In this document: positions 5,855 through 64,000 of the stretch, piece by piece
How the letters are laid out: each line of letters opens with the position of its first letter
Numbering within the stretch: the stretch's first letter is position 1
Assembly: GCF_037652055.1 (NCBI RefSeq)
Contig: NZ_JBBKAH010000001.1
Location: forward strand, 66,221 to 130,220
DNA: 64,000 bases
Source: Pelagibius sp. 7325
Lineage (GTDB): Bacteria; Pseudomonadota; Alphaproteobacteria; Kiloniellales; Kiloniellaceae
Direction: 5' to 3'
Program-made: the position numbers and the translations under genes
Notes under the pieces: model-generated
Databases searched by the model: none
Seen by the model: the letters and a program-made list of their open reading frames with translations, nothing else
Told to the model about the DNA's origin: nothing

Positions 5855-5933
5855 CCGGGCTGCCAACACGCACGCTGTCGTCCCGGTCCTTGTCCCTATG
5901 ATGGTCGCACATTTCTGTCGGCGACTGAGGCTG

Positions 5934-6150
5934 TCATCCCGGCCAAGCGAGCGGAGCGAGCGCGAGCCGGGATCTATGGTTGAGGTCGGGCTCCGGACAT
6001 AGCCATGGGCGTCTCAGTGGATGCCGCAGTCGAGCATCCCCAAGCACTGGGCAACGCGGAGCGGAAGAAATCTGGGGCGGGGCCGGCGCTCGTTCGATCC
6101 ATGGACCCCGGCTCGCGCTCGCTGTCGCTCGCTTGGCCGGGGTGACATCT
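5934..6150. repeat. MITE-like element with ~42-bp terminal inverted repeats (family C)
   Basis: gtcatcccggccaagcgagcggagcgagcgcgagccgggatc at 5934-5975 and its reverse complement at about 6104-6148. A second copy with the same termini lies at 63760-63967. Confidence 0.65.
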
Positions 6151-6202
6151 TGGGTGAGCGAGAGATGTATATCGCACAGAGAGCGACTCCCCGAACGGCG
6201 CG

Positions 6203-14924: not shown

Positions 14925-16823
14925 TCACCCGCCCTTCGGATAGCCGATCTCGGCCAGGGTCGCCTTGATCTCGTCGAGGATCTGGGGGTCGTCGATGGTG
15001 GCGGGGACCTTCACCTCGGTGCCGTCGGCGAGCTGGCGCATGGTGGCGCGCAGGATCTTGCCGGAGCGGGTCTTGGGCAGGCGCTTGACCACCGCCGCCG
15101 ACTTGAAGGCCGCCACCGGGCCGATGCGGTCGCGCACCATCTGCACGACCTCCTTCGCCACGTCGGCGGGCGAGTCGGTGGCGCCGGCCTTCAGCACCAC
15201 GAAGCCGACGGGGAGTTGCCCTTTCAGCCTGTCGGCGACGCCGATGACGGCGCACTCGGCGACGTCGGGATGCGCGGCCAGCACCTCCTCCATCGCGCCG
15301 GTGGAGAGCCGGTGGCCGGCAACGTTGATGATGTCGTCGGTGCGCGCCATGACGTGGACGTAGCCGTCCGCGTCGATGATGCCGGCATCGCCGGTCTCGT
15401 AGTACCCGGGGAAATGCCTCAGGTAGGAATCGTGGTAGCGCTGCTTGGCGTTCCACAGCGTCGGGAAGCAGCCCGGCGGCATCGGCAGCTTGCCGACCAG
15501 CGCGCCGATGGTGCCGGGCGGCACCTCCTTGCCGTCGGCGTCCAGCACGCGCAGGTCCCAGCCAGGCACCGGCCTGGTTGGCGAGCCGGGCTTGACGGCC
15601 AAGTGTTCGATGCCCATGCAGTTGGCGGCGATCGACCAGCCGGTCTCGGTCTGCCACCAGTGGTCGATGACCGGCACCTTCAGCTGATCCTGCGCCCACT
15701 CCAGGGTGTCGGGGTCGCAGCGCTCGCCCGCCAGGAAGAGGACGCGGAACTTGGAAAGGTCGTAGTCGCCGATCAGCTTGCCGTCGGGGTCCTGCTGGCG
15801 GATGGCGCGAAACGCCGTCGGCGCGGTGAAGAGGCTGACCGCCCCGTGCTGCTGGATGACGCGCCAGAAGGCGCCGGCGTCCGGCGTGCCGACCGGCTTG
15901 CCCTCGTAGACCACCGTCGTCGCGCCGTGCAGCAGCGGGCCGTAGCAGATGTAGGAGTGGCCGACCACCCAGCCGACGTCGGAGGCCGACCACCAGACCT
16001 CGCCCGGGTCGATGTTGTAGATGTTCTTCATCGACCACTTCAGCGCCACCGCGTGGCCGCCGTTGTCGCGCACGATGCCCTTGGGCTGGCCCGTGGTGCC
16101 GGAGGTGTAGAGGATGTAGAGGGGATCGGTCGCGGCGACCGGCACGCACTCCTGCGGCGCGGCGGCGGCGACGGTCTCGGCCCAGTCGTGGTCGCGCCCG
16201 GCCTGCATCTCCGCGTGCGCCTGCGGACGCTGCAGGATGAGGCAGAACTCCGGCTTGTGGATCGCCATCTGGATCGCCGCGTCCAGCAGCGGCTTGTAAG
16301 GCACCACCCGCGTCGGCTCGATGCCGCAGGAGGCCGAGAGGATGGCCTTGGGCCGCGCGTCGTCGATGCGCGTCGCCAGCTCGTTGGCGGCGAAACCGCC
16401 GAACACCACCGAGTGCACCGCCCCCAGCCGCGCGCAGGCCAGCATGGCGATCAGCGCCTCCGGCACCATCGGCATGTAGATGATGACGCGGTCGCCCTTG
16501 GCCACGCCGCGCGCCGCCAGCGCGCCGGCACAGCGCGCCACCTGGTCCTGCAGCTGGCGGTAGGTGAGATGCGAGACGGTGTCGGTGACCGGGGAGTCGT
16601 AGATGATCGCCGCCTGCTCGCCGCGCCCGTCCTTCACATGACGGTCGACCGCGTTGTAGCAGGTGTTCAGGGTGCCGCCGGCAAACCAGCGGTAATAGGG
16701 CGGATCGGAATCGTCGAGGACCTTGTCCCACTTCTCGATCCAGTGAATGTCCTCCGCCGCCTTGCCCCAGAACCCCGCCGGGTCCCGCATCGCGGATTTG
16801 TAGACGTCGTCGAAACGCCCCAT
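14925..16823 (-). CDS. prpE: propionate--CoA ligase / acetyl-CoA synthetase family (PrpE-like)
   Basis: Starts MGRFDDVYKSAMRDPAGFWGKAAEDIHWIEKWDKVLDD. AMP-binding motifs YTSGTTGQPKG and core Acs-like blocks. 632 aa. Confidence 0.8.
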   Translation of the reverse strand: MGRFDDVYKSAMRDPAGFWGKAAEDIHWIEKWDKVLDDSDPPYYRWFAGGTLNTCYNAVDRHVKDGRGEQAAIIYDSPVTDTVSHLTYRQLQDQVARCAGALAARGVAKGDRVIIYMPMVPEALIAMLACARLGAVHSVVFGGFAANELATRIDDARPKAILSASCGIEPTRVVPYKPLLDAAIQMAIHKPEFCLILQRPQAHAEMQAGRDHDWAETVAAAAPQECVPVAATDPLYILYTSGTTGQPKGIVRDNGGHAVALKWSMKNIYNIDPGEVWWSASDVGWVVGHSYICYGPLLHGATTVVYEGKPVGTPDAGAFWRVIQQHGAVSLFTAPTAFRAIRQQDPDGKLIGDYDLSKFRVLFLAGERCDPDTLEWAQDQLKVPVIDHWWQTETGWSIAANCMGIEHLAVKPGSPTRPVPGWDLRVLDADGKEVPPGTIGALVGKLPMPPGCFPTLWNAKQRYHDSYLRHFPGYYETGDAGIIDADGYVHVMARTDDIINVAGHRLSTGAMEEVLAAHPDVAECAVIGVADRLKGQLPVGFVVLKAGATDSPADVAKEVVQMVRDRIGPVAAFKSAAVVKRLPKTRSGKILRATMRQLADGTEVKVPATIDDPQILDEIKATLAEIGYPKGG

Positions 16824-16949
16824 GGTCACATCGCTCCCATTTGTGGGCCCTGGACCGAGCCCTTGTTCTTTCGTGGCCGTGCCCGCCCCGGCCTTCACCC
16901 TGAGGAGAGGCCCCAAAGGGGAGCCTCATCCTGAGCCCCCAAAAAGGAG

Positions 16950-16991
16950 CCTCATCCTGAGGAGCGCCGGAACGGCGCGTCTCGAAGGACG
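16950..16991. repeat. half-copy of family-A repeat (cctcatcctgaggag-N-cgtctcgaagg), left boundary of island 1
   Basis: cctcatcctgaggagcgccggaacggcgcgtctcgaaggacg. It is the reverse complement of 21062-21104, and the same arms form complete palindromic units at 40421-40525 and 42695-42797. Confidence 0.7.
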
Positions 16992-17272
16992 AGGCAGCCG
17001 GGCTGCGCCCGGCTTCAACGTCGCGGGGGCCGCCCGCCCCCGCACCCCCGGATTTGCTTTCATTTCCGGGGGTTAGCGGTTCCAGGCAGCCAAAAGCCTT
17101 GACCCGAGAATACGTCCGAGAGCAGGCGAAAAAAAGCCTAGCGACGGAGGGGGAAGAAGGCGTTGAGATGGATCAAGGGGGTATGTTTCTACGCCGCGTC
17201 AAACTGGCCTTGGCGAGTTCAATCGACCCCGCCCATAAGCCTTTGTGGCTGTTTCAGATTCGGCGAAGCGCC

Positions 17273-19219
17273 CTACGCATACCAACTTGGTGGAACTAGG
17301 AATCTACCGCGTCTCCATTCCTCAACTATCGCACGCTCAAACCAGTCCTCATTCAAATGCGCATGATCCAACACAATCAACTGCAATCCGTTGATGACTT
17401 GACACTCGCGATGCATTAGCTCGAACAATGCATGTACAGCATGTCGATCTTTGTCCTCCAAAGGATCTAAGCTTCCTTCTTGGTCACGCTCCGCTGGATA
17501 ATGAGCTTGCGATGGCTGATCGAAAATGAGAACCCCAGGAACTGGTCGATCCCGCTTCCGAAACCACCAATGCAATGCAAGGTACGTCAACACGTGATAG
17601 CCAACCCAATTTTCACCACTACCCATTCGATTGAGTGGAATTGGACCATCATCGGTATCAGCGACGACTGTCAATTTCTTAAGATCAAGCCGCAGCGCAC
17701 TACCACTGTGCTCCAAATCCAACGCCTCAGCATAGATTGACATTTGCTTGCTGATTAAGTTGAGGTAGGTGTCTGTTTTCTGCGCAATTTCATCGATATC
17801 AACAGCCGCTTCAAGAGCTTGCACCCTACGCTTAGCTGCTTCAATCTGGGGCACTAGGTCTACGGCAACATCAGGTGGTCGGATGCCGTCTATAAATGCT
17901 CCGATACGACCCACCACCCGCGCGCGTTCCAATAGAATATCCTGCTGGGCTCTTGCCCGCTCATCTTCAGCAATTGCTCTCGCCAAAGAAGCCTGCGTTT
18001 CCACTAGCGATTTCTCTAATGCGTCGCGCTTACTCGTGAGCTGCTCAAGATGCCTTTGCAGGTGAGGCTGCTCCAGCTCTACCGATTCCAATTGCCTTGT
18101 CACATCAGAAAGCGCCGCTTCGATCTGTATTGATGCTGGCGTTGGAACAGCTAGTTCAGACTCGCAAACGGGACAAGCATGCCCTAAGTCTGCCCCAGAC
18201 TTGAACAAGCCAATCGCGCTAAGCCTAGCGCGCTGCTCGCTGCGTTCGCGAGAGTATGCGCTCTGCTCAGACATCAAGAGTCGCGCTGCTCGCAATTCTT
18301 CCGACGTCTGCTCGAGGGCCTCGCGCAAAGTCCCCTGCTCTTCGCGCAACCGATTAATAGTGGTGCCGAAGTCTGGAAGCGAGACGTTAGTTGCCAAATC
18401 GACCTGACTTGCCGCGCTTAGGACTTGCAGAGTGTCATCAACTACGACCGGCTCAAACTCCTGAGGAACGATATTGACACGCTTGCCGTCATTGATCAGC
18501 CGACGGAGCCTAACCAAGTCAACAACCTGCCGTTCTTCCTGCAGAGATGCCCGCTGCTGCAACTCCGCCAATAACTCCCTAGCCATATCGAGTTCATGCT
18601 GCCGAAGGAAGTGTTGATCATCGACCGCTCCAAGAAAGTATGGCAGGGTATCCTTAATGGCTTGCGGGATAAATTGCTCACCTTGTCGATGGAAGAGTCG
18701 TTCTCGATTATCTATTTCGTCCTGCTTCTGAAAACATAAAAAAAGAGCGTGTCGGATAGTTGCTTGCAGCGGCAAACGAGTGCCGCTTTGGGGGCGATGT
18801 TCATTTTCCGTTATGCCAACGAACCGTGTCAGCATTCGGACAATTTCACCCTCAACCACATTCGATTTGAGTTCGTCGAACACCGGCGGAGCTTCAAAGG
18901 CACCTCTTCGAATGTAAATTTCGCCACCACGATCGGTGCCGGGCCCCGGATTCTTCCGAGCAATAAACAGAACATCCTCACCCTTAACAACCTCAAGACC
19001 GAACCACGACACATAGCGCCGAACAATACCCTCAGCAACGTGACAATGACTGCGACCTAGACAGTAGTCGATAATATCAATAATTGCCGACTTTCCCGTC
19101 TTCGACTCCCCCGTAATGACGTTCAACCCCTCCATCTTAAACGGGAGGGTCCTTTGTTCCCCTTGGTGCGAGTACAGAACTATCGACTTGATTCTCATGC
19201 TCACGGTTTTATACCCCAA
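17273..19219 (-). CDS. SMC/Rad50-like P-loop ABC ATPase with coiled-coil and CxxC hook; candidate ABC-three-component (ABC-3C) system ATPase
   Basis: 648 aa. N-terminal strand plus Walker A (LNVITGESKTGKSAIIDIIDYCLG). Long heptad-rich middle with CPVCESEL. C-terminal LIFDQPSQ (Walker B/D-loop-like, DUF3732-like tail). Low GC. Confidence 0.7.
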   Translation of the reverse strand: MGYKTVSMRIKSIVLYSHQGEQRTLPFKMEGLNVITGESKTGKSAIIDIIDYCLGRSHCHVAEGIVRRYVSWFGLEVVKGEDVLFIARKNPGPGTDRGGEIYIRRGAFEAPPVFDELKSNVVEGEIVRMLTRFVGITENEHRPQSGTRLPLQATIRHALFLCFQKQDEIDNRERLFHRQGEQFIPQAIKDTLPYFLGAVDDQHFLRQHELDMARELLAELQQRASLQEERQVVDLVRLRRLINDGKRVNIVPQEFEPVVVDDTLQVLSAASQVDLATNVSLPDFGTTINRLREEQGTLREALEQTSEELRAARLLMSEQSAYSRERSEQRARLSAIGLFKSGADLGHACPVCESELAVPTPASIQIEAALSDVTRQLESVELEQPHLQRHLEQLTSKRDALEKSLVETQASLARAIAEDERARAQQDILLERARVVGRIGAFIDGIRPPDVAVDLVPQIEAAKRRVQALEAAVDIDEIAQKTDTYLNLISKQMSIYAEALDLEHSGSALRLDLKKLTVVADTDDGPIPLNRMGSGENWVGYHVLTYLALHWWFRKRDRPVPGVLIFDQPSQAHYPAERDQEGSLDPLEDKDRHAVHALFELMHRECQVINGLQLIVLDHAHLNEDWFERAIVEEWRRGRFLVPPSWYA

Positions 19220-19704
19220 CTAGATAAGATAGTTGACGTCGTACCCGCCTTTGCGAACCATCGCCCAAGCAGACGAGCGCTCGAGACACAGCCCTGGGCA
19301 TCATATGTCAGGCTATGGATGAACTTCTGTGACACAGCCAATTTTTGTGCACCGAGTTGCAAGCCGCCGTCTGTCGAAATTGTCAGAGCTCCTTTATCAA
19401 TGCAGAAGCGAACCGCTTCCTGAAGCGTCGGCCGAAGACCCTTTGCTCTCTGAACATACCCGACCATGACTTCGGGGTTCCGTTCGCGCCAAGTGTACAT
19501 TGATGTTAAGGTCGTTGAAGGGAGTGCATTCCGCGTCCTTGCATGCAATGCAATCGGCAACCCGCAAAATGGGAGCACAAATGGACAGGGAGCAGCAGTA
19601 CTTTTCTGATACTCCTTCACGAACTCGATGGCGAGCATTCCACAGAATGCCGGATTAAAAAGTGTTGCCTCTTCCTTCGGCCTAGCATCCCATTTTGGAA
19701 GCAT
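19201..19704 (-). CDS. hypothetical protein; candidate middle component of the three-gene system
   Basis: 167-aa ORF overlapping the downstream ATPase start by 19 bp and abutting the upstream gene stop. Low GC, no recognisable motif. Confidence 0.55.
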   Translation of the reverse strand: MLPKWDARPKEEATLFNPAFCGMLAIEFVKEYQKSTAAPCPFVLPFCGLPIALHARTRNALPSTTLTSMYTWRERNPEVMVGYVQRAKGLRPTLQEAVRFCIDKGALTISTDGGLQLGAQKLAVSQKFIHSLTYDAQGCVSSARLLGRWFAKAGTTSTILSSWGIKP

Positions 19705-20897
19705 TAGCCATCACCTTTTGATTTCTTCTCAGAGAACAAGGCCTGATAGTCGGGATGCCAACCCACCCTCACACTGTCTGCAAGAATCTGATACGAACCG
19801 GTACAAAGCCAACGCTCATGTCTATTTCGAAAAGGTAGCTCGCTCCGGTTGGCCCAATGATATAAGGTGCGCCCAAAAACTTTTTTTAGGTCGTCTGATG
19901 ACAAGTCAGCAGTATCTTGCTGAGCCAATGATTCACTCTGCCAGCGTTCGATAAGCGCTTCGTCATAGCGGCTCGATTCACCGTCAAGAAGGACATTCTC
20001 TCGTGCCCACGCAGTTCGTTGCGCTGAGGCTCGGTAATAGTCGCGCTTTCCCAATTCGACGACGGGGTCAGAGAGACCAACGCACTTCATCTGTTTGACG
20101 AAGATGTGGTTATCAGATGCGAGTTCCGCGTCCGGAACTTCTGAGACCTCTTGGTGGAGCATGAGATCACCCATACGAAATTGAGAAGCGATCTCGTCGA
20201 TTTTCTGTCGAAGCGACAGAAGAGATATCGGCGGTGCCGACGCATCGGTTAGAGCTTTGACGATAGTCGCAAACCACCAACCTTCCAAGTGATCGACGAG
20301 CTTTGCAACGTGTTGTGCCGGGGAAGCGAAAGCTAGTCTTTCTTCAATCTCGCTGCGCACATCAGTAATTGTTGGAGCATTATCATGGACCACAATTGCT
20401 GCAACGAGATCTTTTCTCATCTGACTCGGCAAAGACAGGAAAGCTTCCCGGGCGACTGTTGTCGCCTTGTTGCTAGATGAAGCAGCGATTCGACTCAAGA
20501 TATCGAGAGCTTCTGCTTCGTCATTATCATTGCGACCAACTCGCAACTTCGCGGCTACAGAATCTTTCGGCGCCGTAGCAGTTGTGATAATCGAAAACTT
20601 GCACTCATACAGGGCTTGAGGATTCGAAACGATCTGTTCGCTCCAGATTCGCAACGTCTTCCAGAGATCTGAGCTAGCATCCGTGAGACTAGATGCAATA
20701 GAATGATGTTTGAGTTGAAACTGCGATGTTATTCCGGCTGCAGTCTCAAAAGAGACATCGTCAAACTTTTCGACGCACAAAAGACGATTCGGGAATCGAG
20801 CGCTTTCTTCAATGGCGAGTAGAAGAGCTTCTCTGCACTGATACAGATAACCGACCATAGATGCAGCCGCGCTGTACTTAGACGGACCATTTGTCAT
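19704..20897 (-). CDS. hypothetical protein with N-terminal PD-(D/E)xK-like nuclease motif; candidate effector of the three-gene system
   Basis: 397 aa. The N-terminus GYLYQCREALLLAIE...CVEKFDDVSFE...FQLKHH resembles the E-x(n)-DD-x(n)-QxK REase-like core seen in Cap4/DUF4297-type effectors. The rest is alpha-helical and unassigned. Confidence 0.55.
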   Translation of the reverse strand: MTNGPSKYSAAASMVGYLYQCREALLLAIEESARFPNRLLCVEKFDDVSFETAAGITSQFQLKHHSIASSLTDASSDLWKTLRIWSEQIVSNPQALYECKFSIITTATAPKDSVAAKLRVGRNDNDEAEALDILSRIAASSSNKATTVAREAFLSLPSQMRKDLVAAIVVHDNAPTITDVRSEIEERLAFASPAQHVAKLVDHLEGWWFATIVKALTDASAPPISLLSLRQKIDEIASQFRMGDLMLHQEVSEVPDAELASDNHIFVKQMKCVGLSDPVVELGKRDYYRASAQRTAWARENVLLDGESSRYDEALIERWQSESLAQQDTADLSSDDLKKVFGRTLYHWANRSELPFRNRHERWLCTGSYQILADSVRVGWHPDYQALFSEKKSKGDG

Positions 20898-21061
20898 CTC
20901 AGCTGAGGCTCTTACACATGTTCGCCCAGAAAACGAACTTTATATTACCGCATTATCGCAATGGTTGTCATGGTTAATGTATGCGCCAGCTCGTTCGATT
21001 TGGGCGATCATCCTCTCGCCGCGTCGCTCTCTTGGACAGGAATTGGAAAATCAAGGTCACG

Positions 21062-21104
21062 CCGCATCCTTCGAGACGCGCCTTCGGCGCTCCTCAGGAT
21101 GAGG
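21062..21104. repeat. half-copy of family-A repeat (cgtctcgaagg-N-ctcctcaggatgagg), right boundary of island 1
   Basis: ccgcatccttcgagacgcgccttcggcgctcctcaggatgagg, the reverse complement of 16950-16991. Confidence 0.7.
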
Positions 21105-21126
21105 CTCAGGGGGTGGGGAGAGGGCT

Positions 21127-21415
21127 TTACGCCGCGGCCGGGTTGACCAGCGGGGCGCGTTCGCCGGGCCTGAGCACGGTGGCGTCGTAGGGGCGGCGGG
21201 CGAAGACGTCGCGCACCATGGGGGCGAAGAACTGCAGCGGCAGGGTGTCGTAGTCGGGGTCGAAGCTCGCCTGGTCCCAGCGCTCGCAGAAGTCGGCACA
21301 GTCGTCGAAGTAGGGGTGGCCGCGGTGGCGCTCGCGCCGATCGCGGTCGAAGCCGGCGAGGTGGTGGCCGTAGTAGTAGAGCTGGAACTCGCCGTGGCGG
21401 CGCGTCACCCGCATC
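21127..21415 (-). pseudogene. truncated 3' duplicate of the HD-domain gene at 26095-26700
   Basis: Encodes VTRRHGEFQLYYYGHHLAGFDRDRRERHRGHPYFDDCADFCERWDQASFDPDYDTLPLQFFAPMVRDVFARRPYDATVLRPGERAPLV. This matches the C-terminal ~95 aa of the full-length HD protein with 3 substitutions, and the DNA is about 95% identical over ~285 bp. The 5' end is cut off by a family-B REP element. Confidence 0.75.
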
Positions 21416-21490
21416 CCTCTCCCACGCAGGGAAGAGGAAAACCAAAAGCACCCCTCCCCTCCCTCCCCCATCAAGGGGGAGGGGGTTATA
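21413..21490. repeat. REP-like element family B (partial)
   Basis: catccctctcccacgcagggaagagg followed by ccctcccctccctcccccatcaagggggaggggg palindromes. Confidence 0.5.
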
Positions 21491-21699
21491 GCGGGGCCTC
21501 CCCCATACTCCTGCCTTCGCCGAAGCGGCTCCGGGCAGGCAGGTCGAGACGCCGCCTTCCGGCGGCTCCTCAGGATGATGTGGAAGGGGGATACGGCAGG
21601 GCCCGGGCCGCGTCCGGTTGAGGCGGGCGCGCTTCCATGATCCAATGCAGCCGGATGCGGCAGGGCGGGGGCGGCCAGGCGGAGATCCGGCGGTGAAGG

Positions 21700-23387: not shown

Positions 23388-23500
23388 CCCCTCACCCCGA
23401 CCCTCTCCCCGCTGGGGAGAGGGAGTCCCCCTCACCCAGCTGCGCCTAGGCTCGTTCCTCGCCAAGGCTTCGCATCCCTCTCCCGCGAGGGGAGAGGGGA
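23388..23500. repeat. REP-like element family B (tandem/double copy)
   Basis: ccctcaccccgaccctctccccgctggggagaggg followed by ccctcacccagctgcgcctaggc...gccaaggcttcgcatccctctcccgcgaggggagagggg. Confidence 0.7.
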
Positions 23501-24098: not shown

Positions 24099-24118
24099 GG
24101 GTCTCCCGGATCCTCGAG

Positions 24119-24200
24119 CCCCCTCACCCAGCTTCGCCTATTCGCGCACGCGCGCTAAGGCTGCGCATCCCTCTCCCACGCTGGGGGAGAGGGGTTTGGA
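24119..24200. repeat. REP-like element family B
   Basis: cccctcacccagcttcgcctattcgcgcacgcgcgctaaggctgcgcatccctctcccacgctgggggagagggg. Confidence 0.7.
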
Positions 24201-26094: not shown

Positions 26095-26700
26095 CTAGGG
26101 GCCGACGGTCACCAGCGGGGCGCGTTCGCCGGGCCTGAGCACGGTGGCGTCGTAGGGGCGGCGGGCGAAGACGTCGCGCACCATGGGGGCGAAGAACTGC
26201 AGCGGCAGGGTGTCGTAGTCGGGGTCGAAGCTCGCCTGGTCCCAGCGCTCGCAGAAGTCGGCGCAGTCGTCGAAGTAGGGGTGGCCGCGGTGGCGCTCCC
26301 GGCTGTCGCGGTCGAAGCCGGCGATGAGGTGGCCGTAGTAGTAGAGCTGGAACTCGCCGTGGCGCCGCGTCACCCAGGTGCACTGCTCGCGCACGAAGGG
26401 CTTCAGGATCGCCGCGGCGTAGTCGGCGTGGCTGAAGGGCGCATGGATGTCGCCGATGTCGTGCAGCAGCGCCGTCACGATCCAGTCGGTGTCGGCGCCG
26501 TCGCGAAAGGCGCGCGTCGCGGTCTGCAGCGAGTGGCCGAGGCGCGTCACCTTGTAGCCGGAGATGCCGTCCTCCAGTGCGGCCATCGCCGCCAGCAGGC
26601 GCTCGGCGGTGTGCCGGTGGTGGTCGTACACCAAGTCGGTGAGGTAGGCGTATTCCTCCTTGGTGCCGTCCTTCATCTGCGTGAAATTGACGGATTCCAT
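26095..26700 (-). CDS. HD-domain metal-dependent phosphohydrolase/oxygenase-like protein
   Basis: Starts MESVNFTQMKDG. HD motifs are DHHRHTAERL, LLHDIGD and HADYAAAI. Its 3' end is duplicated at 21127-21415. Confidence 0.75.
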   Translation of the reverse strand: MESVNFTQMKDGTKEEYAYLTDLVYDHHRHTAERLLAAMAALEDGISGYKVTRLGHSLQTATRAFRDGADTDWIVTALLHDIGDIHAPFSHADYAAAILKPFVREQCTWVTRRHGEFQLYYYGHLIAGFDRDSRERHRGHPYFDDCADFCERWDQASFDPDYDTLPLQFFAPMVRDVFARRPYDATVLRPGERAPLVTVGP

Positions 26701-28046: not shown

Positions 28047-28062
28047 CGGCGGGGCGGCGCGC

Positions 28063-28092
28063 TTCCCTCTCCCAGGGGGGGAGAGGGCTCCC
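28063..28092. repeat. REP-like family B tail (ccctctccc-N-gggagaggg hairpin)
   Basis: cttccctctcccagggggggagagggctcccc. Confidence 0.5.
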
Positions 28093-28950: not shown

Positions 28951-28960
28951 CGGGGGCTCG

Positions 28961-29040
28961 CCCCCTCACCCAGCTTCGCCTAAGCGCGATCTTAGATCGC
29001 GCCAAGGCTGCGCATCCCTCTCCCACGCAGGGGAGAGGGG
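28961..29040. repeat. REP-like element family B (between convergent genes)
   Basis: cccctcacccagcttcgcctaagcgcgatcttagatcgcgccaaggctgcgcatccctctcccacgcaggggagagggg. Confidence 0.7.
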
Positions 29041-35519: not shown

Positions 35520-36926
35520 CTATTTCGTTGAAGCCAGTGAACGCTCTATTTTATGAAGCCAGCCCTCGATCTCCTGAGTCGCATTCTCATGGGGCGACGC
35601 TTTGCGAATCTCATCAAGTTCAGAACGTGCAATGGCTACTGTCCGCCAAAGATTCTGGTCGGGGTTCTGACCCAGTAATCTGTCCCTTATTCCTTGTTTG
35701 ACCCGAGATCTATCGCTTTTCGAAAGACTCTCTGGAGCCATCAAGAAAATGAGCCTTTGTGCGATCTGCTGAAACCTTGGATCGTTGAACTTCCGAATGA
35801 GGCTTGCCCTTTGAGACCAAGGTGTTTCTGCAAAATTTCGCATCACCATTTCGTCATGTTTGCCTGGAAACCCTTCGAAAATCCTTTGCTCTAAAGCTCT
35901 TGGTTCCGGCCACTCTTCTCTCATTTTCGTTGCGAGCTTCACTAGGATGGCCCTTCGCTCGGGGGACGCGAGAAACGCAGCTTCTTCTGCCACTCTCTTG
36001 GATGGCACAATCCCAAGGTGCGCTCCGGCCTCATACTGGCTAGCAGCAATAGGAAACATGTTCTCCTTGAAACGTCGAATCCGAAATGTATGGCTCGTGA
36101 TGAGCATCTCCTGTGATGAGATCGTATTCGAGAAGAATCTTCGCCAGTCGGCCTCCAATTTGGCCACAAACTTGGCTGATTTCTGTTTGTTATCAGAACC
36201 GATTGGAAGCCCCCACCAACCAGGGCGGCCGTCCTTAGAAGGTTCTGCAAAAAAGATAGGCTTCCCTGTATTCACTAGCCGAGACGCAAATTCTCGATCG
36301 GAACAGTCCAAGAACAGGGCCCATAGCGCTTGGGACCTCGATGCGATTTTCTTGCAAATGTGAATGACGGCCAGCACATCTCCCAAGGCATCATGCGCAT
36401 CGGTGTGAGCGTATCCATTCAATGGGGCAAGCCGATCCAAACGAAATATAGGGCGACCAGATGCAATGTTAGGCACTACAAGTGCATGCGGTGAGATCCT
36501 CGACATAGCACGCACTAGAGGCAAAACGTCCGCCCTAGCGTTGCCATGAGTGACGGTTAGGTAAGGCGGGTTCAATGTTTGCCACAGCGCCCGTTGCAGA
36601 AGCGGCTCATCGAACTGGAATGAGTTGTACCCAATGAAGAGTGCAGGAGACCAGGATCGCAACCTCTCCTGTATACTCGCCATCATATCGGGAAATTGTG
36701 GCAGATTAGGGTTGTCAATTTGACTTGGCGAAATGCCGGTAACGATCATCGCACTGGGCGACGGGACTATCCATGGCAATCGTCGGCACCTGATATTTAT
36801 GCGATCAAGCTCTTTAAAGCTCTTGTCGGTCAATATGGCCGCAAACTGAATAATTTGATCAAACTCAACATTCGTTCCGGTTGTTTCGGTATCATAAAAT
36901 ACAAAATTTCGAGTATCGCCAGACAC
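35520..36926 (-). CDS. exodeoxyribonuclease I (SbcB)-like DEDDh 3'-5' exonuclease
   Basis: 468 aa. Exo I motif FYDTETTG, Exo II FIGYNSFQFDE, Exo III HTDAHDALGDV, plus a long C-terminal helical/SH3-like region collinear with E. coli ExoI. Low GC. Confidence 0.8.
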   Translation of the reverse strand: MSGDTRNFVFYDTETTGTNVEFDQIIQFAAILTDKSFKELDRINIRCRRLPWIVPSPSAMIVTGISPSQIDNPNLPQFPDMMASIQERLRSWSPALFIGYNSFQFDEPLLQRALWQTLNPPYLTVTHGNARADVLPLVRAMSRISPHALVVPNIASGRPIFRLDRLAPLNGYAHTDAHDALGDVLAVIHICKKIASRSQALWALFLDCSDREFASRLVNTGKPIFFAEPSKDGRPGWWGLPIGSDNKQKSAKFVAKLEADWRRFFSNTISSQEMLITSHTFRIRRFKENMFPIAASQYEAGAHLGIVPSKRVAEEAAFLASPERRAILVKLATKMREEWPEPRALEQRIFEGFPGKHDEMVMRNFAETPWSQRASLIRKFNDPRFQQIAQRLIFLMAPESLSKSDRSRVKQGIRDRLLGQNPDQNLWRTVAIARSELDEIRKASPHENATQEIEGWLHKIERSLASTK

Positions 36927-36936
36927 ATTATCGCTC

Positions 36937-38499
36937 TCAATAATATGAATATGGCGGAGGTTCGACGCCCTCTAGGCCAAATGTATAGTAGTATTTGCGC
37001 GCAGCTCGCCAGCCTCGAACAAAGCTAGGGAGACGCGGGTTCGGGCAATTTGGGCCACGCCATGCTCTCTTGTCGAGCCATTGGCCGAGGATGAGTTCCT
37101 CGGCCGAGGGCGAGAGGCCTTTTCGCTTGTACTTGATCTTCAGAATGCGCTGCCTCTTCCTCATTGCAAGCCGTAGGCTCACAAGCAACCAGCGATCCAA
37201 CTCCTTAAGCGTTTCAGCGTCTTCAAGAAGGGCGTAAAATCCCATCAAGCCCCGCATCTCGCGTAGCTTGTCGCCACCGTTGAGAAATTTAGTGATCTCT
37301 TCCTCTTCGAGTCCGCCATAGAGGTATCCTCGCAACTCAAGAACGAGTCCAAGAAGGTCCCAGTCGTATGGCTTGCGTACCGTGCGGCAGCGGTTCTTAT
37401 TGAATCCAAATTTTTTAGGATACTGAATCAGATAGACTTGTATAAGCCGTGACATTTTCGCGATTATACGTGCCCGGACATGATCGGGGATCTTAAGGCC
37501 GCCCTTGGTAAACCGATATCCAAGATAGTCGAATCCAGAATAACTTCTAATTTCCGCTTCATCTTTGCCAATGATAGCGATTCCGGGCGATTTCTTCTCA
37601 TTTATTATGAGGCCACTGTTCTGGCAGTGCTCGATAAACGTCTCTTCAAGTTCCTCCGCTTCAGCGTAGGTCGAGCAAAGGGCAACTACGTCGTCCGCGT
37701 ACCTGACAAAGCGTCCTGATTTCCGTTCCAAGGAACGATCAAGCTCGTGGTTGGCGAGATTCGCAAGAAGAAGTGAGACAGACGAGCCTTGCGGCGTGCC
37801 AATGTGCCGCCTCGCGAAATCTCCAATTAGATAGTCAGAAACGCTCGCAAACTGGTGTCGCATGAACTCCTTTAGTACGAAGCGCTCATGGGGCGTAACA
37901 GCTACAAGCTCTCTATCGTCAATACATCGCTCCATGTATCGAGTTGGGATAGTGTCGAAGTATTTTTGAAAATCGATCTGCACGGCAAACAATCTTTGAT
38001 CAGTCATGAACCCTTTCAGGGCCAAGATAGCATCAAACACATCACGTTCAGGGTGGTAAGCGTAAGAAAAGGGCGAAAGTCTCTTGATATTCCGATCCCT
38101 GGCCCTTCGAAGCACCACGTTTGCCAGCGCCGCATCTGGGATGGCAAAAGCCATAATCTCCCTGACTCCGCCTTGAGGCTTAGGAATCTGATACCTGACC
38201 GCCGGTACCGGCTCGTAGGTGGCATCAAGGACCTTTTTCCAAATCGTCTTTGCGATGATGTTAGCGTTTCTCGCGCAATGGGTAGGATCAAAGTGTCGAT
38301 GAACTTTCGCCAGCGAGGATGCTGGCTTCGGCAGTCCTGCTTTCAATCCAGTCCGCTTCTCAAATTTTTGCCGATCCTGACGCGCCTTTGCATCGCGGCC
38401 ATTGTTTCGCCGCCCTGCGCGCCGGCAAAGTCTTTTGATTTCCTGTTTTAGAGCTTTTTCCATGAGGGCGGCGAGGGGTCTTAGATCAAGGGTTTCCAC
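36937..38499 (-). CDS. reverse transcriptase (retron/group-II-intron-like RT fold, no maturase/endonuclease; unclassified defence-type RT)
   Basis: 520 aa. RT motifs are 0 VRYQIPKPQGGVREI, 1/2 AFAIPDAALANVVL, A FAVQIDFQKYFDTIP, B' IGTPQGSSVSLLLANL, C VRYADDVVAL and the thumb-like GFDYLGYRF. A ~150-aa helical C-terminal extension follows. Low GC, 10-bp gap to the ExoI-like gene. Confidence 0.85.
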   Translation of the reverse strand: METLDLRPLAALMEKALKQEIKRLCRRAGRRNNGRDAKARQDRQKFEKRTGLKAGLPKPASSLAKVHRHFDPTHCARNANIIAKTIWKKVLDATYEPVPAVRYQIPKPQGGVREIMAFAIPDAALANVVLRRARDRNIKRLSPFSYAYHPERDVFDAILALKGFMTDQRLFAVQIDFQKYFDTIPTRYMERCIDDRELVAVTPHERFVLKEFMRHQFASVSDYLIGDFARRHIGTPQGSSVSLLLANLANHELDRSLERKSGRFVRYADDVVALCSTYAEAEELEETFIEHCQNSGLIINEKKSPGIAIIGKDEAEIRSYSGFDYLGYRFTKGGLKIPDHVRARIIAKMSRLIQVYLIQYPKKFGFNKNRCRTVRKPYDWDLLGLVLELRGYLYGGLEEEEITKFLNGGDKLREMRGLMGFYALLEDAETLKELDRWLLVSLRLAMRKRQRILKIKYKRKGLSPSAEELILGQWLDKRAWRGPNCPNPRLPSFVRGWRAARKYYYTFGLEGVEPPPYSYY

Positions 38500-39456
38500 T
38501 GACGAAGCGTACCTAAGGGCTTATCGTCACCCCTCAGCGCATTGGTGCCTCGACACCAGGTAACTTGACCCCTCGCCTAGGCTACTACGCCATTCAAAAA
38601 AAGTGTCGAGATTAGCTGGCGACGTCAAGCTATTTGAGCGTTAACAACTGGAAGAAAAATGAAAAACTGCCATAGACCAGTCTGCTAGGCGAACAAAAGG
38701 TTAGCCAGAAAGGGGCCTGCATGCCATGACGAGCGTGTTGCCAAGTACATAGCAACGATCTTGGATCTCGTTACTTATCAGGCGGCAATCGCCTCGACCC
38801 GCGTTCTATACGCGCCCGCCTGCGGCTACACAATTCGACTACTCTGCTGGTCACAATCCGCGGAGCACCGGGCGTGACCGTGCTGCCCAAGTTGGTCGCA
38901 ACAACGACACCGATCGCCTTCTGTGAGATCGCTAAGCCAATTACGCAGTGCCAGATTGGCCTGATCAGCCGTTCTATGGATTTGCCCGGTCCAGCAATGC
39001 TCGCCTTTGCAGATTTCGCCCCATTCCACGTGCCAGCAAGGAAAGGAACCTGCTGACGGACTTCTAGCGGGAGTCGAGGCGAATGATCGCTGCTGCTGCC
39101 AACTGTTTCTCAGAACTCCAGTCTGAATTTGGCATGATCCGCTCCGGCTCAACTTGAGTCCCGTGGCCCGGCTGCGGGCAGACCGGCGTCCAGCCTTAGC
39201 GAGGACGCTTCCCCCAAATACAAAACCGCGCCCTTCGGTCCCTCTCGAACTGAGGGTGAAGGACGCGGTGGAAGCGTCGGATGCCTGCTTGTCTGTCCGT
39301 CGTGCCGGCGACTGCTTTTGTGGCTGCTTTTCGCTTCTGCTTTTGCTGCTCTCCTGAAGGGTTCCTTCCCTTCGGCACGGGCCTGCCTGGCTGCCAGATG
39401 ACCGGCGCCTGCGTATCAGGCGTTGCTTGACTGAGGCTTTGTGCTTGGGAGTTTGG

Positions 39457-39624
39457 CTAGCTGTCCATGTGTCCCGCGATTTCGTCCTTGATCCGGAGTT
39501 TTTCGCGTTTAAGTTCAATAATCCGGAGATCGTCGGGATGCGGCCTGTGTTCTTCCTCGTCGATTGCGTTTTCGATAGCCGCGTGCTTGGTTCGCAACGA
39601 CGCGATACGCTCATCTGCTGGCAT
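39457..39624 (-). CDS. DUF465 (YdcH-like) small protein
   Basis: MPADERIASLRTKHAAIENAIDEEEHRPHPDDLRIIELKREKLRIKDEIAG. A paralogue lies at 42432-42647. Confidence 0.6.
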   Translation of the reverse strand: MPADERIASLRTKHAAIENAIDEEEHRPHPDDLRIIELKREKLRIKDEIAGHMDS

Positions 39625-40420: not shown

Positions 40421-40525
40421 CATCCTTCGAGACGGCTGCTGCGCAGCCTCCTCAGGATGAGGTCAATCATTTTATGTTCCACCCTCATCCTGAGGAGCCG
40501 CCGCAAGGCGGCGTCTCGAAGGATG
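40421..40525. repeat. complete palindromic family-A unit (MITE/REP-like): arm - 20-bp AT-rich core - inverted arm
   Basis: ccatccttcgagacg..ctcctcaggatgagg / tcaatcattttatgttccac / cctcatcctgaggag..cgtctcgaaggatgg. Confidence 0.75.
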
Positions 40526-42694: not shown

Positions 42695-42797
42695 CATCCT
42701 TCGAGACGGCGCTGACGCGCCTCCTCAGGATGAGGTAAGACTATGAAATGATTGACCTCATGCTGAGGAGCACGCGAGCGCGTGCGTCTCGAAGCAC
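42695..42797. repeat. complete palindromic family-A unit (MITE/REP-like)
   Basis: catccttcgagacg..ctcctcaggatgagg / taagactatgaaatgattga / cctcatgctgaggag..cgtctcgaagcacg. Confidence 0.75.
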
Positions 42798-63693: not shown

Positions 63694-63759
63694 GGACTGG
63701 CGACTCCCTCGACAACGACAGTCACCGTTTTCTTCCGGCCGTCTCCAAACTGTCACCCC

Positions 63760-63967
63760 GGACAAGCGAGCCTGAGCGAGCGCGATCCGGGGTCTATGGC
63801 AGGTCCAAGCTCCCGGCAAAGCAGGAGGGCCCGCATCTGGGCCGGGCATAGGCGTCGGCGCAGCGCACTACAGGGGCTTTCAGCCGAGCGAGCGACTGCG
63901 AAGCCTGGCGCCCGACACTTCAATGGATCCCGGCTCGCGCTCGCTCCGCTCGCTTGGCCGGGATGAC
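63760..63967. repeat. MITE-like element family C (second copy)
   Basis: ctgtcaccccggacaagcgagcctgagcgagcgcgatccgggg at 63761-63803 and gatcccggctcgcgctcgctccgctcgcttggccgggatgac at about 63926-63967. Same termini as 5934-6150. Confidence 0.65.
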
Positions 63968-64000
63968 ATGCTGAGTAACCGACAGGGATGCGTGAACATC

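Follow-up and report, generated by a model that had tools for sequence, protein, structure and literature searches.

Upstream of prpE, the gene for propionyl-CoA synthetase, Pelagibius sp. 7325 carries a low-GC island of three genes that lies between two nearly identical inverted sequences, termed here armR and armL. The island was studied within a stretch of 64,000 nt (contig NZ_JBBKAH010000001.1), called the window; this 64-kb window is the whole of the data for Pelagibius sp. 7325 itself, and copy counts for this organism cover the window alone. The GC profile falls from ~0.69 to 0.49-0.53 between ~17.2 and 21.06 kb, the genome having 68-70% GC and the island ~50%. Comparison with related loci shows that the arms are not the termini of the three-gene cassette and are not required in pairs.

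The island genes lmuA, lmuC and lmuB overlap or abut, are all on the minus strand (Table 1) and are predicted from their protein matches to encode a Lamassu (ABC-3C) anti-phage system. The cassette is foreign and horizontally acquired. The nearest LmuB homologues are only ~73% identical, and because of this the ends of the island cannot be defined from near-identical copies of the cassette. Among the window open reading frames (ORFs) examined, no gene for an integrase, transposase or recombinase is present in or beside the island. Homologous Lamassu operons occur in Methylocystis iwaonis, next to IS66 and genes for conjugation, and in Stappia sp., flanked by core genes; no arm is found within 6 kb of either. 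A public protein record for lmuB (P0169), from the same contig of 432 kb, has 437 amino acids (aa) and is 100% identical over the 68% of the query that it covers. The ORF read here has 641 aa and aligns with LmuB models over its full length, and the deposited lmuB annotation appears to start later than this ORF.

A preliminary description of this DNA had reported the two inverted sequences around the 50%-GC island, two compact units farther along and a lone arm, and all of these are found at the positions it gave (Table 1). The window holds eight arm copies at five intergenic sites per 64 kb. The 19-nt head motif CCTCATCCTGAGGAGCGCC has six matches where 0.07 are expected, and the tail motif GCGCGTCTCGAAGGA has five where 0.49 are expected. 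Constant flanks, CCTCATCCTGAGGAG and CGTCTCGAAGGATG, enclose a hypervariable GC stem; the central part reads CGCCGGAACGGCGC in armR and CGCCGAAGGCGC in armL, and the two arms differ by one bp in the length of this stem and in the outermost bases but in nothing else. Outer bases pair as CATCC...GGATG and GAG...CTC around the inner GC hairpin. Folded as single DNA arms, armR gives -16.8 kcal/mol (z -4.1) and armL -15.1 kcal/mol (z -3.6), with no shuffled sequence as stable. Each arm is a self-contained imperfect palindrome and not half of one. The arms had been taken for half-copies, and the supposed complete units are head-to-head dimers. Two degenerate, head-only copies next to armR are not present in the aligned relatives, and the region of the lone arm (window 21587-21499) is matched by BLAST to positions 377-462 of the related locus L136.

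Table 1. Features of the island, its surroundings and the second island (window coordinates)
Feature	Position	Strand	Evidence and remarks
Two degenerate head-only partial arm copies (CTTCACCCTGAGGAG..., CTCATCCTGAGCCCCC...)	16893..16949	+	prpE upstream region; read directly; repeat listing; head match with 2 mismatches
armR, complete REP-like unit: head CCTCATCCTGAGGAG, GC hairpin, tail CGTCTCGAAGGACG	16950..16991	+	127 bp upstream of prpE start (16823, minus strand)
Conserved non-coding block, CTTGAYC...TAGGCTTTTTTTCGC-N13-TATTCTC plus hairpins	16992..17181	-	Between armR and island; in L001, L003-L005, L128, L135, L136, L138
lmuB, SMC-like ABC ATPase of Lamassu/ABC-3C, 641 aa	17273..19198	-	PADLOC LmuB E = 7e-123; Pfam DUF3732 E = 1.5e-51
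lmuC, ABC-3C middle component MC3, 167 aa	19201..19704	-	Pfam MC3 E = 4e-43; PADLOC LmuC E = 9e-13
lmuA, effector-type component, CTD7 C-terminal domain, 397 aa	19704..20897	-	PADLOC LmuA E = 4e-53; Pfam CTD7 E = 6e-32
Low-GC upstream (promoter) region of Lamassu operon	20898..21061	-	Sigma-70-like match 20971-20942; ends few bases from armL tail
armL, another complete REP-like unit in inverse orientation to armR, tail towards island	21062..21104	-	23 bp past HD-fragment stop codon
3' fragment of HD-domain gene, 284 bp	21127..21410	-	97% identical to 3' end of full gene at 26095-26700 (match 26111-26375)
Small palindromic repeat CCCCCTTGATGGGGGAGGG, separate family	21451..21487	.	BLAST to L001 4007-4044 (95%) and to L138; pattern search
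Lone arm, tail truncated (GTCTCGACCTG)	21543..21578	-	Inverted-repeat listing; orthologous to L136 copy
SbcB-like exonuclease	35520-36926		PADLOC RTasSbcB 7e-125
DRT9 reverse transcriptase	36937-38499		PADLOC Drt9 6e-156
262-aa unknown protein of second island	38826-39614		
Head-to-head dimer of two arms, AT-rich spacer 20-22 bp	40421..40525	.	DNA fold -44.2 kcal/mol, z -10.7
Further head-to-head dimer, orientation opposite to that of the first, related spacer (TCAATCATTT..AT)	42695..42797	.	Inverted-repeat listing; fold

The region upstream of prpE in related genomes

Loci around orthologues of the window prpE (88-97% identity) were compared, together with loci that bear the conserved block upstream of it; they are denoted here by labels such as L001. 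At the same place upstream of prpE, nine loci (the window and eight relatives) display seven different contents and two empty sites. Lamassu in the window is replaced by PDC-S06 (an AAA_13 protein) in L001, by Gabija (GajA/GajB) in Pelagibius sp. CAU 1746 (L004), by a PIN_12 protein in L136 and by a Nuc_deoxyrib_tr-like protein in L135. Locus L005 (7976-9605) encodes a 212-aa RelA_SpoT-domain protein, with a weak PDC-S33 match, whose gene overlaps that of a 338-aa partner of no assigned family. Pelagibius marinus GCA_014925385 (L003, 6929-9712) has four genes, encoding proteins of 90 aa and 480 aa, a 166-aa 8xMP-like membrane protein and a 167-aa NUDIX protein. The site is empty and without an arm in L128/L129, and empty with two arms in L138. 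By its gene content, this site is a predicted core defence hotspot with variable cargo in the Kiloniellaceae.

The RelA_SpoT pair of L005 may be a toxic small alarmone synthetase pair. The four genes of L003 have no PADLOC match and the 480-aa protein has no match in Pfam; they form a candidate uncharacterised defence cluster.

An arm in the position and orientation of armR, 50-130 bp upstream of prpE, is found in L001, L003, L004 (two in tandem), L005 (degenerate), L136 and L138 (two); it is not present in L128/L129 and is truncated in L126. Because it is orthologous across loci with differing cargos and in the empty L138, the prpE-side arm is older than any of the cargos and is not needed as one of a pair. 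No partner arm is found at the far edge of the cargo in the related loci, and L003, L004 and L005 have no second arm there at all. A rule that arms occur only where there is cargo, suggested by the arm-less empty site of L128, was rejected on account of the empty L138 with its two arms.

Two observations on individual relatives concern the same leader region. In L004 (9843-9883), in L138 (1261-1301 as oriented) and at the contig end of L135, the place of the GGGCCGCG...CGCGGC / GGGCAGCCGCCC hairpins in the block upstream of prpE is taken by an extra arm in tandem, from which it follows that arms are gained and lost inside one leader region. In L126 (1-150), the closest relative by PrpE (97%), the prpE-side arm is cut to CTCAGGATGAGG, the conserved block is gone and the contig ends. 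The end of an ORF that finishes next to this truncated arm (...DFEATIATETAWLFLAHIRLLSRRLARP*) resembles the C-terminus of a transposase, but Pfam gives no match.

The left end of the island is set by the conserved block and not by armR. BLAST homology between the window and L001 extends from 14925 to 17181, and in all compared block-bearing relatives unrelated sequence switches to homologous sequence at CTTGAYC, which corresponds to 17181/17182 of the window, ~190 bp from armR on its island side. As homology resumes at CTTGAYC in every locus, the true left end of the island is the start of this block. The preliminary description had the arms bracketing the island; this holds for the right arm, which abuts the GC drop, but the left arm stands ~190 bp outside the true junction. 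It had asked whether syntenic loci have the island present or absent exactly between the arms; in the relatives compared the boundary is CTTGAYC, with no arm at the far edge. The block itself has no match in Rfam and displays a weak consensus fold, and we infer that it is the promoter or leader of prpE. CTTGAYC was considered as a sigma-70 promoter element and rejected; there is no conserved -10 box at the right spacing and a promoter scan is empty there.

These comparisons bear directly on the proposal, made in the preliminary description, that the arms are recombination or mobilisation sites. Under this proposal, armR and armL would be paired sites, pdif-like or as in a composite element, and a recombinase would have moved arm, cargo and arm as one unit. 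Near-identical inverted 42-bp sequences do bracket low-GC DNA, the central hairpins of armR and armL are more alike than those of 97% of arm pairs, and an inverted arm-like copy is found distal to the cargo in L001 and L136 too. However, those distal copies are either kilobases away from the cargo or orthologous to the lone arm of the window, and armR, 190 bp outside the junction, has orthologues in genomes with other cargo or none. L003, L004 and L005 have no distal partner arm, the Lamassu homologues elsewhere have no arms, and no recombinase gene is found in or adjoining the island. The second low-GC defence island of the window (DRT9, ~35.3-39.7 kb) likewise has no arm at its edges. Its neighbours are an AMP-binding gene on one side and a flavoprotein gene on the other, two genes that stand close together in L005 and L128, and the nearest arms are those of a head-to-head dimer past the host flavoprotein gene.

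Thus paired site-specific recombination sites do not bound the island: the left junction lies 190 bp away from the arm, relatives are one-armed and Lamassu homologues are arm-less. The preliminary description had named two patterns that would speak against its proposal, the operon without flanking arms and arms with nothing between them as at many other loci. Both are seen here, because there are arm-less Lamassu homologues, one-armed relatives, an arm-less DRT9 island and, elsewhere, many closely spaced arm pairs. Synteny has already largely refuted paired mobilisation sites, and it is extremely improbable that the arms act in this way.

The sharpness of the left junction calls for separate consideration, since it is common, to the base, to nine loci with seven cargos. 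CTTGAYC might be a recognition or attachment site at which defence cassettes without an integrase are exchanged, with the REP-like hairpins helping to target or resolve the exchange and the likeness of armR and armL as a trace of it. This is very unlikely. The junctions of L003, L004 and L005 display no consistent target-site repeat and no consistent microhomology, and L001 alone has a significant 12-bp repeat, which comes from a separate palindromic repeat. The 7-bp direct repeat CCTTGAT at both edges of the island was considered as a target-site duplication or attachment core and rejected, as it is not better than 13% of shuffles and nothing in L003, L004 or L005 corresponds to it. Selection on the promoter block, combined with repeated deletion and replacement, can explain the sharp junction.

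The arm family and the DNA right of the island

Scanning for the arm pattern, with each bacterial species represented by one genome, places the arms in a large repeat family; the results given here and below hold among the matches listed. Matches are found in Reyranella, Bradyrhizobium, Bosea, Methylocystis, Rhizobium, Sphingomonas, Devosia, Parvibaculum, Asaia and others, and in many alphaproteobacterial metagenome-assembled genomes, with several copies per 8-kb stretch in other genomes. A set of 249 copies was taken from the window and from loci L006-L125. The flanks, C-CTCATCCTGAGGAG and CGTCTCGAAGGATG, are more than 95% constant, and the central part has 210 different sequences in the 249 copies. 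In 87% of copies, and in 2% of shuffles, the central stem is perfect over 4 bp or more, the head CC/GC covaries with the tail GG/GC, and the inner variable GC stem is 5-7 bp long. Central loops are mostly GAA (50 copies) and GCA (41 copies). Triloops of the GNA type form unusually stable DNA mini-hairpins, and their presence hints that the arm acts as single-stranded DNA rather than RNA. As repetitive extragenic palindromic (REP) elements, the arms probably work as DNA or RNA hairpins, for example in the protection of mRNA ends or in protein binding. Rfam has no family for the arms, the head-to-head dimers or the conserved block and gives chance-level matches only (BjrC80 at 16 bits and miRNA-precursor-like hairpins). 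A search of the literature for these motifs, or for a name already given to the arm repeat, yielded nothing specific, and no Y1 transposase turned up among the ORFs examined in the 64-kb window.

Arms also form dimers, defined as pairs within 200 bp, and in ~1.1 Mb of alphaproteobacterial loci 65 are tail-to-tail, 34 head-to-head and 6 head-to-tail; single copies are present as well, and pairs only 12-68 bp apart are common. The order at the island, armR to armL with tails inward, is that of a tail-to-tail pair. The preliminary description was correct in finding this order reversed relative to its compact units, but it is no oddity, as the tail-to-tail arrangement is about twice as common in the sample as the head-to-head one.

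The arm order raises the further alternative that an existing tail-to-tail dimer was split when the cassette and the 190-bp block entered its spacer together. Tail-to-tail is the commonest dimer type, the hairpins of armR and armL are similar, and DNA inserted between dimer partners is noted in PMC3733652. Yet the 190-bp block adjoins the tail of the arm in every relative, including both empty sites, and for this reason it is ancestral and not inserted. An intact tail-to-tail dimer is found at this position in none of the nine loci. Moreover, where two arms form a genuine dimer their hairpins are usually dissimilar (modal edit distance 5-7), whereas those of armR and armL are 2 edits apart (2.8th percentile of all arm pairs). 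The splitting of a resident dimer is hardly to be credited.

On the right side, armL directly adjoins the GC drop and follows the stop codon of an HD-gene fragment. This side lacks a counterpart in the genomes compared, so the right junction is placed only approximately. The HD fragment ends at 21410 against another repeat family, the CGCATCCCTCTCCC repeat. Its C-terminus is PLVNPAAA*, that of the L001 orthologue is PLVKPAAA* and that of the full-length copy in the window is PLVTVGP*. The fragment keeps the ancestral C-terminus, which points to an older order of HD stop codon, REP, cargo, block, REP and prpE. In L001 a different hairpin repeat follows the orthologous HD stop codon, and from this a REP after the HD stop appears to be a host feature with turnover of repeat families.

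The interval of 21.06-21.6 kb is a patchwork of repeats consisting of armL, the CGCATCCCTCTCCC repeat, the CCCCCTTGATGGGGG palindrome and the lone arm. Gene order varies among relatives, and the region right of the island is prone to rearrangement. The suggestion in the preliminary description that this may be a hotspot where REP-like elements accumulate is essentially right, with the addition that this intergenic region, rearranged and rich in repeats, is also a variable defence hotspot.

Several other observations were made in this part of the window. Direct repeats of 265 bp, 97% identical, at 21146-21410 and 26111-26375 flank a segment of 4965 bp that encodes a 389-aa and a 167-aa unknown protein, an SBP_bac_3 protein and a transglutaminase-like protein. 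The truncated HD copy has the ancestral C-terminus and the full-length copy the new one, and the arrangement resembles a Campbell-type or one-sided homologous insertion. At least two further families of intergenic repeats are present, of the CCCCTCACCCAGCTTCGCCTAAGC...CGCATCCCTCTCCC and GTCACCCCGG...GATCCGGGGTC types, with copies at 51-124, 21410-21437, 23426-23498, 24118-24191, 28060-28087 and 28960-29038, and also at 5900-6165 and 63745-64000. One copy is the point of truncation of the HD fragment.

The patchwork is consistent with a closer involvement of the repeats, in which REPs are substrates for homology-driven or illegitimate recombination and armL is the join-point of stitched segments (the Lamassu cassette, the HD fragment and the 4.97-kb segment), its hairpin perhaps converted from that of armR. 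Repeats of several families stand at nearly every segment boundary in 21.06-21.6 kb, the 265-bp direct duplication flanks 4.97 kb and, as noted, gene order varies among relatives. The armR hairpin resembles that of armL and not those of its own orthologues, and in L126 the arm is truncated beside the end of a foreign ORF. REPs are also said, in work of Tobes and Pareja from 2006, to be targets of insertion. The evidence is correlative throughout, however, and REPs are frequent in intergenic DNA anyway, with arms at ~5 intergenic loci in 64 kb. The likeness of the hairpins reaches only p ~0.03 and involves a common GC stem, and the junctions display no consistent microhomology. A role of armL as a join-point is unlikely on balance, but of all the alternatives it is the one to be taken most seriously.

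The explanation favoured here, with a probability of about 0.78, is that armR and armL are independent, resident copies of a REP-like element family, similar to bacterial interspersed mosaic elements (BIMEs) and spread over the Alphaproteobacteria, in a repeat-rich, rearranged defence hotspot, and that they are not mobilisation sites. On this explanation armR would have stood for long in the non-coding DNA before prpE, and armL would be a REP just past the stop codon of the HD remnant, a typical position for a REP. Turnover of the cargo would most likely occur by homologous exchange through the flanking conserved genes, and illegitimate or repeat-mediated recombination in the repeat-rich intergenic mosaic may contribute. 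The sharp boundaries would result from selection, acting both on the block upstream of prpE and on the coding sequence next to it.

Four points weigh against resident, independent arms. Selection alone is not a full explanation of a sharp junction common to nine loci. There is no visible mechanism for the first arrival of a 50%-GC cassette whose island has no integrase or transposase gene. armL abuts the GC drop and may be host DNA or may have arrived with the cassette from another alphaproteobacterium. Finally, the hairpins of armR and armL are unusually alike, while armR orthologues carry quite different hairpins, and this could reflect a duplication or gene conversion linked to the insertion. 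The likeness may equally be due to gene conversion between neighbouring copies, or to the chance sharing of a common GC stem.

Significance and relation to known systems

That inverted repeats surround a genomic island does not in itself make them its ends; in this case, according to synteny, they are REP-like elements of the host that predate the cargo. The site upstream of prpE, newly delimited here, is a defence hotspot of Pelagibius and other Kiloniellaceae in which unknown systems could be sought, the NUDIX/8xMP/480-aa cluster and the RelA_SpoT pair being examples. The arms are also described compactly here as a REP-like element that occurs across the class Alphaproteobacteria, its flanks constant and its stem hypervariable, and the region right of the island is an example of repeat-rich intergenic DNA turning into a mosaic of insertions and duplications. 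Both kinds of element are already known, one as a REP/BIME-like repeat family and the other as a core defence hotspot, here with a Lamassu cassette.

Short inverted repeats around a gene cassette recall the pdif modules of Acinetobacter plasmids, and the head-to-head dimer resembles a miniature inverted-repeat transposable element (MITE), or Correia-type element, of ~105 bp with terminal inverted repeats. Unlike either, the arms do not have the structure of XerC/D-type sites, carriers do not consistently have them in pairs, no target-site duplication recurs from locus to locus and the arms predate the cargo.

The locus as a whole is similar to the core defence hotspots of Pseudomonas aeruginosa (cDHS; PMC10250203) and the defence-island hotspots of Escherichia coli (PMC10121019), in that a fixed site between conserved genes (prpE on one side, an acetyltransferase or HD gene on the other) holds varying systems or none and the cargo has no mobility genes. 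It differs in being a new locus from the little-studied marine Kiloniellaceae, with one boundary formed by a non-coding block and a junction that is sharp to a few bases.

The arms themselves are closest to the REP/BIME elements of, for example, E. coli and Pseudomonas and to REPIN doublets. They share with these an imperfect palindrome of ~40 nt and an occurrence both singly and in inverted dimers, head-to-head or tail-to-tail, which form bigger hairpins; the arms of the window are also intergenic, and such elements often stand just past stop codons. They differ in that the flanks are conserved over a whole bacterial class and the central stem is hypervariable, and the sequence is unrelated to that of the enterobacterial GTAG-type REPs. 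REP families with head-to-head and tail-to-tail dimers, and with DNA inserted between dimer partners, are described for Alphaproteobacteria in PMC3733652. The CGTC-tagged super-family of that paper (Di Nocera et al. 2013) is mostly alphaproteobacterial and forms both types of dimer, and in these respects it matches the arms; no transposase is known for it. The tag is found directly after the inner hairpin of the arms, C preceding GTC in 241 of the 249 copies. In addition, the arm head starts with CCTC, which is listed, like TGTC, as a variant of the tag. The outer stem of the arm begins with AT (AT...AT). The published families, in the same account, have stems of 8-9 bp that start with AT, loops of 4-5 nt, a CCA tail and mostly head-to-head dimers. 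Compared by description with these, the arm has a longer, interrupted stem that encloses a variable hairpin, loops mostly of 3 nt, no CCA tail and an excess of tail-to-tail over head-to-head dimers.

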